A stretch of 54,484 nt of DNA, from assembly GCF_003334355.1 (NCBI RefSeq), contig NZ_QOWP01000027.1. One strand, 5' to 3'. This document shows positions 25,321 to 25,450 of this stretch, piece by piece. The position numbers were made by a program, and so were the translations under genes. The first letter of the stretch is position 1, and every line of letters begins with the position of its first letter. The notes below the pieces were generated by a model. That model ran no database searches and was not told the origin of the DNA. It saw nothing but the letters and a program-made list of their open reading frames with translations. The DNA is from Escherichia coli (GTDB lineage: Bacteria > Pseudomonadota > Gammaproteobacteria > Enterobacterales > Enterobacteriaceae).

Positions 25321-25450
25321 CGCGCTGATGCCCTCACCCCAACCCTCTCCCACAGGGAGAGGGAGAAAATCAGCGCCGATTTTAACACTGTGCTCGATCG
25401 GTCCCCTCGCCCCTTTGGGGAGAGGGTTAGGGTGAGGGGCAAAGCGCGCA
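25321..25450. repeat. Paired GC-rich imperfect palindromic intergenic repeats (Box C-like)
   Basis: cgcgctgatgccctcaccccaaccctctcccacagggagagggagaaaatcagcgc and inverted copy ggtcccctcgcccctttggggagagggttagggtgaggggcaaagcgcgc; resembles small GC-rich dispersed repeats of enterobacterial genomes (family assignment uncertain). Confidence 0.5.

Follow-up and report, generated by a model that had tools for sequence, protein, structure and literature searches.

The Escherichia coli DNA analysed here (contig NZ_QOWP01000027.1, 54,484 bp, hereafter the window) carries a Flag-2 (lateral flagella) gene cluster, and in variable region 1 of this cluster an inverted pair of repeats of the BoxC family lies between two co-directional genes. 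Variable region 1 was described as a cargo region for genes of flagellin glycosylation or methylation (PMC6993521). On the minus strand, lfgA, lfgM and lfgN are followed by a gene for a LafV-like protein of 309 amino acids (25460..26389, TGA stop at 25460-25462), a spacer of 178 nt (25282-25459) and the gene for a GT2-type glycosyltransferase (GT) of 814 amino acids (22837..25281); beyond the latter, a cytidylyltransferase gene and lfiJ-G are located on the other strand. The whole repeat pair is contained in the spacer and forms a composite imperfect palindrome of 136 bp (25317..25452), which lies 35 nt from the ATG of the glycosyltransferase gene at 25281 and 7 nt from the stop codon of the LafV-like gene.

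The two units stand back to back in the '-+' arrangement, with their C-block hairpins directed inward and their GGGTGAGGG blocks directed outward. The left unit (25318..25369, 52 nt) is on the minus strand and has its core, as defined by the TMECO pattern given below, at 25330-25363, and the right unit (~25390..25451, ~60 nt) is on the plus strand with its core at 25404-25439. Within the 40 nt between the two cores (25364..25403), each unit has its 5' extension, and a weak hairpin forms the apex (25371-25390). Exactly two copies of the core motif CCCTCACCCNAACCCTCTCCC are present in the window, both without mismatches, at 25331-25351 on the plus strand and at 25418-25438 on the minus strand; the chance expectation was 0 matches in 100 shuffles, and no third copy of the repeat, strict or degenerate, was found in the 54,484 bp. 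The inverted arms (25317-25351 and 25418-25452) measure 35 nt each, are 86% complementary and are separated by 66 nt, and their complementarity runs on inward via the CCCTCTCCC/GGGAGAGGG hairpins. The exact motif search and the arm search confirmed a preliminary description of this DNA, which had placed two inverted copies of an element between the start of the transferase gene and the stop of the neighbouring open reading frame (ORF), and its size estimate of roughly 55 bp per unit agrees with matches of 52 nt and 58 nt to independent E. coli copies. The 171 bases around the pair are 100% identical in ATCC 8739 and many other strains.

Judged from their sequence, the two units are BoxC repeats, a family also known as PIT elements, TMECO triplex motifs or HPG1/HPG2, and the pair combines a type-A unit with a derivative of a type-B unit. 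The family has long been known and the pair in the window is an ordinary instance of it. BoxC was described in 1992 (Bergler 1992; Bachellier 1999; as cited in PMC4666352 and PMC2267715) and was later renamed the potential intrastrand triplex (PIT) element (Hoyne and Maher 2000/2002, as cited in PMC4666352 and PMC2267715) and then TMECO (PMC4666352), before the family was found anew as HPG1/HPG2, a 'G-quadruplex-hairpin-duplex switch' (Kaplan 2016, PMC5100583). The name 'boxC' is also in use for the lambda/rrn nut boxC. An independent survey lists BoxC with a length of 56 bp and 32 copies (PMC2267715). The repeats are non-coding, dispersed and rich in G+C, and they combine a short hairpin (CCCTCNCCC / GGGNGAGGG) with a third block, GGGTGAGGG, that in single-stranded DNA can fold back into a purine-motif triplex in vitro (PMC4666352). 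Their orientation and their distance to genes vary freely, without functional bias (PMC4666352), and close inverted pairs consist of one type-A unit (loop 2 TTA) and one type-B unit (loop 2 CCG) (PMC4666352; PMC5100583).

Both cores match the TMECO pattern 5'-CCCTCNCCC N3-6 GGGNGAGGG N3 GGGNGAGGG[GTC-]-3' (Holder 2015, PMC4666352) exactly. Along the G-rich strand each unit is ordered as CCCTCNCCC, a loop of 3-5 nt, GGGAGAGGG, a loop of 3 nt and GGGTGAGGG. The left unit reads TTTTCT-CCCTCTCCC-TGT-GGGAGAGGG-TTG-GGGTGAGGG-CATCAGCGCGCAC on the minus strand, with the core closing in GGGTGAGGG-C, and the right unit reads GTGCTCGATCGGTC-CCCTCGCCCC-TTT-GGGGAGAGGG-TTA-GGGTGAGGGG-CAAAGCGCGCAC on the plus strand. 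Divided by blocks, the right core is CCCTCGCCC-CTTTG-GGGAGAGGG-TTA-GGGTGAGGG-G, with a single mismatch in its hairpin (CCCTCGCCC vs GGGAGAGGG), and it is letter for letter the core of K-12 TMECO no. 7, 11 and 15, which belong to type 'A with one mismatch', that is, with one mismatched triplet. The left unit is over its 52 nt 98% identical to the copy between ilvC and ppiC, K-12 TMECO no. 20, which was classed as type B by Holder (PMC4666352). Its hairpin (TGT loop) and its 3' flank CATCAGCGCGCAC are those of type B, yet its loop 2 is TTG, where both K-12 no. 20 and strain MSB1_4I from a sister Flag-2 lineage have TCG; by sequence, it fits type B as a derivative but not to the letter. The right unit matches the lptG-yjgR copy over 58 nt at 95% identity, and its flanks are kept in the lptG-yjgR, ytfQ-ytfR, fepB(-entC) and gcvP(-ygfF) copies. 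Compared with these four and with the lldD-trmL copy, the units reach beyond the 34-37-nt cores to ~52 nt on the left and ~60 nt on the right, the aligned flanks being GTGC.CGATCGGTC (5') and ..AGCGCGCAC (3'). Among the five inverted pairs of K-12, four are arranged '+-' and one, at lldD-trmL, has the '-+' arrangement of the window pair.

Reading frames, transcription and folding

In the ORF track of the window, the transferase starts at a GTG at 25353, within the left repeat; the RefSeq start is the ATG at 25281, and in strains without the repeat the transferase ATG aligns with this ATG and the extension is absent. The N-terminal extension had already been suspected to be spurious, and rightly so. 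A coding reading of the repeat, either as the extended transferase ORF of 838 amino acids or as ORFs of 69 (25296-25505, minus strand) and 108 amino acids (25303-25629, plus strand), was rejected because the overlapped stretch is missing in ~528 genomes, and the ORFs overlapping the pair are therefore artefacts. The practical outcome is a corrected glycosyltransferase start at 25281 and an explanation for two spurious ORFs. No Shine-Dalgarno sequence is recognisable in the 25282-25300 interval before this ATG on the minus strand (upstream RNA AUUAACUCACCCAAACACC-AUG), and the glycosyltransferase ATG of the repeat-less allele likewise lacks one.

A sigma-70 promoter scan of the spacer returned 0 sites, scans of the spacer with sigma-28 and sigma-54 patterns of our own making found no site either, and a GCCGAT at 25375-25380 has no -35 partner. 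The sole promoter-like motif found near the LafV-like and GT genes is a sigma-54-like -24/-12 motif, CGGCAC-N5-TTGCA (26424..26439, minus strand), 35 nt upstream of the LafV-like start; as a consensus match only, it would fit control of Flag-2 genes by LafK and sigma-54. Because no promoter-like site was found in the spacer and this motif precedes the LafV-like gene, both genes probably share one transcript. In a terminator scan of 600 nt, two sites were obtained against 0.6 expected, and only the weak apical hairpin was flagged (25390-25371, minus strand), which has 7 pairs including 3 G-C and precedes ATTTTCT. The main stem is followed by ACAUUCAUCAC, with no T-run or U-run after it. In published tests, as far as they are summarised in PMC4666352, PIT elements acted neither as promoter nor as terminator and left RNA polymerase unaffected.

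The minus-strand RNA of the spacer is predicted to fold into one long hairpin of ~55 near-continuous pairs with -97 kcal/mol for 201 nt, compared to a mean of -60 for shuffled sequences (z = -8.7). The single-stranded DNA fold reaches -48.6 kcal/mol (z = -8.6), and either strand can form the hairpin. The idea that the pair could form a large cruciform or RNA structure thereby holds as a prediction. Rfam gave no match in the repeat region at gathering thresholds; at E ≤ 10, models of plant and animal microRNA precursors were matched far below threshold, and these matches were rejected as meaningless because they result from the long hairpin. A type-A oligonucleotide with one mismatch formed a stable triplex in vitro according to circular dichroism (CD), NMR and melting analyses, whereas in vivo footprinting with dimethyl sulfate (DMS) did not detect a triplex, and the duplex prevails when the complementary strand is present (PMC4666352). 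Going by the sequence of the published control mutant, the characterised oligonucleotide appears to have the sequence of the right core (PMC4666352).

Variation at the locus and dispersal of the family

The long form of the locus (781 bp) with the repeat pair was found in ~750 E. coli genomes, and ~528 genomes, from sequence type 131 (ST131) and others, have a spacer of 46 nt without BoxC between intact flanking genes. In E. coli U15A (NZ_CP035720.1 597-642) this short spacer contains an unrelated small hairpin, GCCGGGAAAACCGGC. Because the non-repeat parts of the spacer differ as well, the long and the 46-nt alleles are old. In E. coli VTB96777v (NZ_CP178642.1), the allele is 64 bp shorter, equivalent to 25364-25427 of the window, and the pair is collapsed to a single perfect hairpin, GCCCTCACCCCAACCCTCTCCC-ACA-GGGAGAGGGTTGGGGTGAGGGC. 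Since its right arm now mirrors the left unit, template switching seems a likelier cause than a simple deletion. Such a collapse was described as 'palindrome effect' at TMECO loci (Holder et al., PMC4666352), which are more variable than control loci (PMC4666352). Between two Flag-2 lineages, the element is 94.9% identical and the flanking coding DNA 95.7% and 88.6%; none of the 7 substitutions in the element is compensatory, a number too small to be informative.

By megablast, BoxC was located at 26,086 places in 4,610 of 5,426 complete E. coli genomes, with a median of 5 and a maximum of 13 per genome, counts that are lower bounds because the units are short; 14 of the places are on plasmids. 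The motif is thus not unique to the locus but dispersed through E. coli genomes, so that the interpretation as a repeat family, for which uniqueness had been named as the decisive counter-evidence, stands. The further proposal that this family is distinct from REP is supported by the TMECO pattern match and by the REP-derived Rfam model naRNA4, which yields nothing at 25200-25600 but matches four other sites in the window. A pattern scan with one genome per species, in which the matches listed come from four genomes, shows presence outside the enterobacteria but no distribution: among these matches the TMECO family is not confined to enterobacteria, with at least ~145 exact-pattern units in the betaproteobacterium Mitsuaria (Roseateles) chitosanitabida, at least 13 in the metagenome-assembled genome (MAG) JACPAT01 of the Methylomirabilota (NC10) and at least a few in two other MAGs. 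For Salmonella and Yersinia, TMECO is reported to be lacking.

Among the matches listed, the units of the NC10 MAG are mostly '+-' pairs ~30 nt apart, and all 27 close inverted pairs of Mitsuaria are arranged '-+' like the pair in the window. In the Mitsuaria doublets, which look REPIN-like, the outer flanks are conserved (GAAGA|CCCTCACCC ... GGGTGAGGG|TCTTCG) and the inner spacers vary, measuring 30-272 nt and often consisting of short tandem repeats. Target-site duplications were seen neither around the window pair nor around the 27 Mitsuaria doublets, and the flanks of the window pair, ...GATGAATG| and |GAGCGACT, have no direct repeat in common.

The LafV-like protein, named after PMC6993521, is a weak relative of FliB-type flagellin lysine-N-methylases and scores 40 bits with NCBIfam NF038110, which is under the cutoff. 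Annotations of its gene differ: several strains (e.g. E. coli 99-3165) have a 'lysine-N-methylase' pseudogene interrupted by an internal stop, others an intact gene for a 'hypothetical protein'. In K-12 (246500-258000), rayT directly adjoins the lfhA/lafU pseudogene scar left by the Flag-2 deletion. Elsewhere in the window, Rfam matches at gathering level comprise the four naRNA4 REP-type elements (5016-5093, 8345-8422 and 9087-9164 on the plus strand, 15654-15731 on the minus strand), ES036 (CssrF; 40705-40747, plus strand) and RNA-OUT of an IS10 end at the window edge (54346-54415, minus strand).

Repeat units at the ends of DUF559 genes

In every one of the 12 loci examined from Proteobacteria and NC10, a gene for a DUF559 protein (YcjD family, Vsr-like) has BoxC/TMECO-type units next to its ends, and the units flank these genes at both ends. 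A '+' unit lies at most 102 nt upstream in 10 of the 12 loci and a '-' unit at most 53 nt downstream in 10 as well, to which a degenerate one at ycjD is added. A further '+' unit downstream completes a '-+' doublet after the gene, as in the window, in 5-6 loci. Eight loci (from a Burkholderiaceae MAG, a Marinobacter MAG, Caulobacter flavus, Salinisphaera, an NC10 MAG and metagenomes) were sampled via a protein search, free of ascertainment by the repeat, five of them being chosen because their proteins are without repeat-coded tails; units were present at the gene ends in 8/8 of these loci and on both sides in 7/8. The unit sequence differs by DUF559 lineage, with the logic of one C-block and two G-blocks being kept; for example, the units at the DUF559 loci of the NC10 MAG JACPAT01 and of a metagenome contig use GGGGGAGGG/GGGTGGGGG. 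The window itself contains no DUF559 gene. In the collection of papers searched for the motif sequences and for DUF559/YcjD, none was found to connect the two, and the association appears to be unreported.

Together with their flanking units, the DUF559 genes occupy tight operon spacers, for instance between fadB- and fadA-like genes, or between two ABC-transporter ATPase genes in the NC10 MAG JACPAT01, and a near-alike insertion exists in an unrelated metagenome contig. Three diverged DUF559 paralogue loci of Mitsuaria are alike solely from the '+' unit to just past the '-' unit, which defines a repeated module of ~0.5 kb with its ends set by the upstream and downstream units. Among the 120 best homologues of the Mitsuaria DUF559 protein, 55 have N- or C-terminal tails that are translated units (e.g. 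...PLSRxRERxRVRA-RxLR... or ...HPHPNPLPQAGEGA), and the regular expressions describing these tails gave 0 matches inside the DUF559 domain. Almost all enterobacterial YcjD orthologues end in ...PSPRPSP*, which corresponds to the reverse complement of a type-B unit. E. coli K-12 YcjD (NC_000913.3 1350900-1352300) ends in ...RRSPSP*, with the stop codon of the gene inside a degenerate BoxC hairpin, and behind this stop a partial duplicate of the 3' end is followed by TMECO no. 9, the fabI (envM) copy. The latter is the copy at which BoxC was reportedly first described.

At positions 408-566 of the same K-12 stretch, TMECO no. 9 is separated from the degenerate unit with the stop codon by a direct repeat of ~40 nt of the ycjD 3' end (GGAGACGGTGCTGGAGAATATTC...). 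In some variants of E. coli YcjD (P0124, P0132) the reading frame continues through this repeat, which suggests recombination between its copies. Of 5,426 complete E. coli genomes, 3,378 carry the ycjD locus. Sampled genomes with ycjD have 3-6 BoxC megablast places, mostly 4, and sampled genomes lacking it (Nissle 1917, O157:H7, avian pathogenic E. coli (APEC)) have 1-4, mostly 1-3, a difference that is confounded by phylogeny. In one enterotoxigenic E. coli (ETEC) strain, IS1 is inserted in ycjD. The sole solved relative of YcjD is the 'endonuclease-like protein' in PDB entry 3HRL, and VsrA, a DUF559 protein of Caulobacter, damages DNA in vivo (PMC12907096).

Interpretation of the pair and comparison with known systems

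With a probability of about 80%, the pair in the window has no dedicated function and owes its presence to the spread and decay of the repeat family, not to selection on flagellar gene expression. The pair is dispensable and unstable at this locus, as the ~528 genomes without it and the collapse in VTB96777v demonstrate. The sequence comparison gives no sign of constraint either, the divergence of the element being similar to that of neighbouring coding DNA, with no compensatory changes. According to this reading, the pair would be carried passively inside a likely lafV-GT co-transcript, in which both units would pair to one long and very stable hairpin, and at the DNA level it would be an unstable palindrome, with gain, loss or collapse from one lineage to another. 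Several points speak against it. A predicted hairpin of -97 kcal/mol, 35 nt before a start codon without Shine-Dalgarno sequence, could well affect how the GT message is processed, how stable it is or how it is translated. The published negative tests concern, in the form summarised in PMC4666352, single units in reporter contexts and not inverted pairs, and Kaplan et al. argue from conservation for a regulatory G-quadruplex/hairpin switch (PMC5100583). The additional differences between the long and the 46-nt alleles in the non-repeat parts of the spacer also mean that a clean insertion or excision event is not demonstrated.

Compatible with a functionless pair is a tentative explanation of its origin and spread, to which we give somewhat less than even odds: the pair may be a REPIN- or MITE-like doublet (MITE, miniature inverted-repeat transposable element), either a non-autonomous partner or an ORF-less relic of the unit-bracketed DUF559 module with its PD-(D/E)xK nuclease. 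By analogy with RAYT and REP, the nuclease might recognise folded units and copy or maintain them in trans. With the same reservation, BoxC/TMECO would represent the terminal repeats of a compact and widespread DUF559 endonuclease module, along with its satellite doublets, instead of free-standing 'triplex motifs', and orphan units and '-+' doublets could have been copied, maintained or left behind by the nuclease. The regular position of the units at all 12 loci, including the '-+' doublets behind some of the genes, points in this direction, as do the repeat-coded tails outside the domain, the YcjD termini with the unit at the ycjD stop and TMECO no. 9 behind it, the Mitsuaria loci that are alike only between flanking units and the shift of unit sequence with DUF559 lineage. 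The module in the TMECO-rich NC10 MAG, the fewer BoxC places in sampled E. coli without ycjD and the DNA damage by the Caulobacter protein fit as context. Adjacency, however, is not activity, and the DUF559 genes could be repeat-targeting cassettes or Vsr-type repair genes that just happen to lie among the repeats. Neither a target-site duplication nor a clean empty site was seen, the ends of the simple module ('+gene-') are the reverse of the '-+' in the window, only eight loci are free of ascertainment by the repeat, and the enterobacterial YcjD tail represents one inherited event, with the correlation in E. coli confounded by phylogeny. A RAYT was not found, though none would be needed.

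A function as an RNA-level cis element is in our view unlikely. The hairpin in the lafV-GT RNA would be cut by RNase III or block 3' exonucleases and so uncouple stability or translation of the two genes, similar to REP in malE-malF. The predicted stability of the ~55 near-continuous pairs, the co-directional genes without a promoter-like site between them and the presence of other BoxC copies within operons (ytfQ-ytfR, pstA-pstB, gcvP-ygfF) would suit such a role, and some effect on lafV or GT is conceivable because the published tests skipped inverted pairs and the hairpin ends 35 nt before a start without Shine-Dalgarno sequence. Against it stand the ~528 genomes that manage without the pair, the lack of covariation, the indifference of the element to orientation and gene distance (PMC4666352) and earlier tests that, in the summary given in PMC4666352, showed no effect on RNA polymerase or termination. 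Still less probable is a DNA-structure switch, in which a triplex or G-quadruplex on the G-rich strands would regulate local transcription or replication or serve as an adaptive generator of variation. A type-A sequence that appears to be that of the right core does form a triplex in vitro by CD and NMR (PMC4666352), a G-quadruplex/hairpin switch was observed by CD (PMC5100583), TMECO loci exceed controls in variability (PMC4666352) and the locus in the window is polymorphic, but the triplex escaped detection by DMS footprinting in vivo and the duplex wins when the complementary strand is available (PMC4666352), and variability is equally expected of a decaying selfish repeat or of any palindrome. 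That the pair is the intrinsic terminator of the lafV-like transcript or a promoter for the glycosyltransferase is very improbable: the weak terminator-like hairpin flagged at 25390-25371 is the mere tip of the large palindrome, whose stem runs into ACAUUCAUCAC without a U-run, the scan gave no promoter-like sites, and PIT elements were reported, according to the summary in PMC4666352, to lack either activity.

For the window itself the repeat pair matters little, apart from marking a place in variable region 1 of Flag-2 where the structure is unstable and E. coli lineages differ. For the origin, spread and function of BoxC, its bracketing of DUF559 genes, with ycjD next to the fabI (envM) BoxC as the E. 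coli case, provides a concrete and testable candidate enzyme. If the proposed role of the DUF559 module is true, it would explain the 9-mers shared by E. coli, Burkholderiales and NC10, and the module would be a second, mechanistically different counterpart of REP/REPIN-RAYT.

REPIN-RAYT systems, which Bertels and Rainey in 2011 reportedly described as REP doublets with a REP-associated tyrosine transposase, share with BoxC the short palindromic units that are arranged as inverted doublets in intergenic DNA and form a long hairpin, as well as a small nuclease gene flanked by units and present in few copies compared to many copies of the repeat. In contrast to RAYT, the gene flanked by BoxC encodes a Vsr-like DUF559 protein of the PD-(D/E)xK type, with an activity assumed by analogy, and not an HUH/Y1 transposase, and BoxC has no GTAG-type 5' tetranucleotide. 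The E. coli RayT belongs to REP. A link of BoxC to RAYT was considered and rejected, as E. coli RayT, compared by tblastn with 1.07 Mb of TMECO-bearing loci, had no match better than E = 3. The REP/BIME (PU) elements are G+C-rich extragenic palindromes as well and often lie between co-transcribed genes; their sequence is unrelated, and in BoxC the hairpin is followed by a third block. MITEs such as ERIC/IRU (RU-1) resemble the pair in having less than 200 bp, terminal inverted repeats (35 nt, 86%) and a predicted long RNA hairpin, whereas BoxC comes without target-site duplication or a related IS transposase and its units also occur singly.

Within the BoxC family, the pair in the window departs from the K-12 copies in the TTG of loop 2 of its left unit (CCG or TCG in K-12), in the rarer '-+' arrangement with a 40-nt gap, found in one of five K-12 pairs (lldD-trmL), and in its location in the accessory Flag-2 cluster that is missing from K-12. 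It shares with the family the pattern, the unit length (~52-62 bp compared to the published 56 bp), the intergenic position, the dispersal in E. coli, the two types with TTA or CCG-type loop 2, here as an inverted combination of an A unit with a B derivative, and the instability including collapse of the palindrome.

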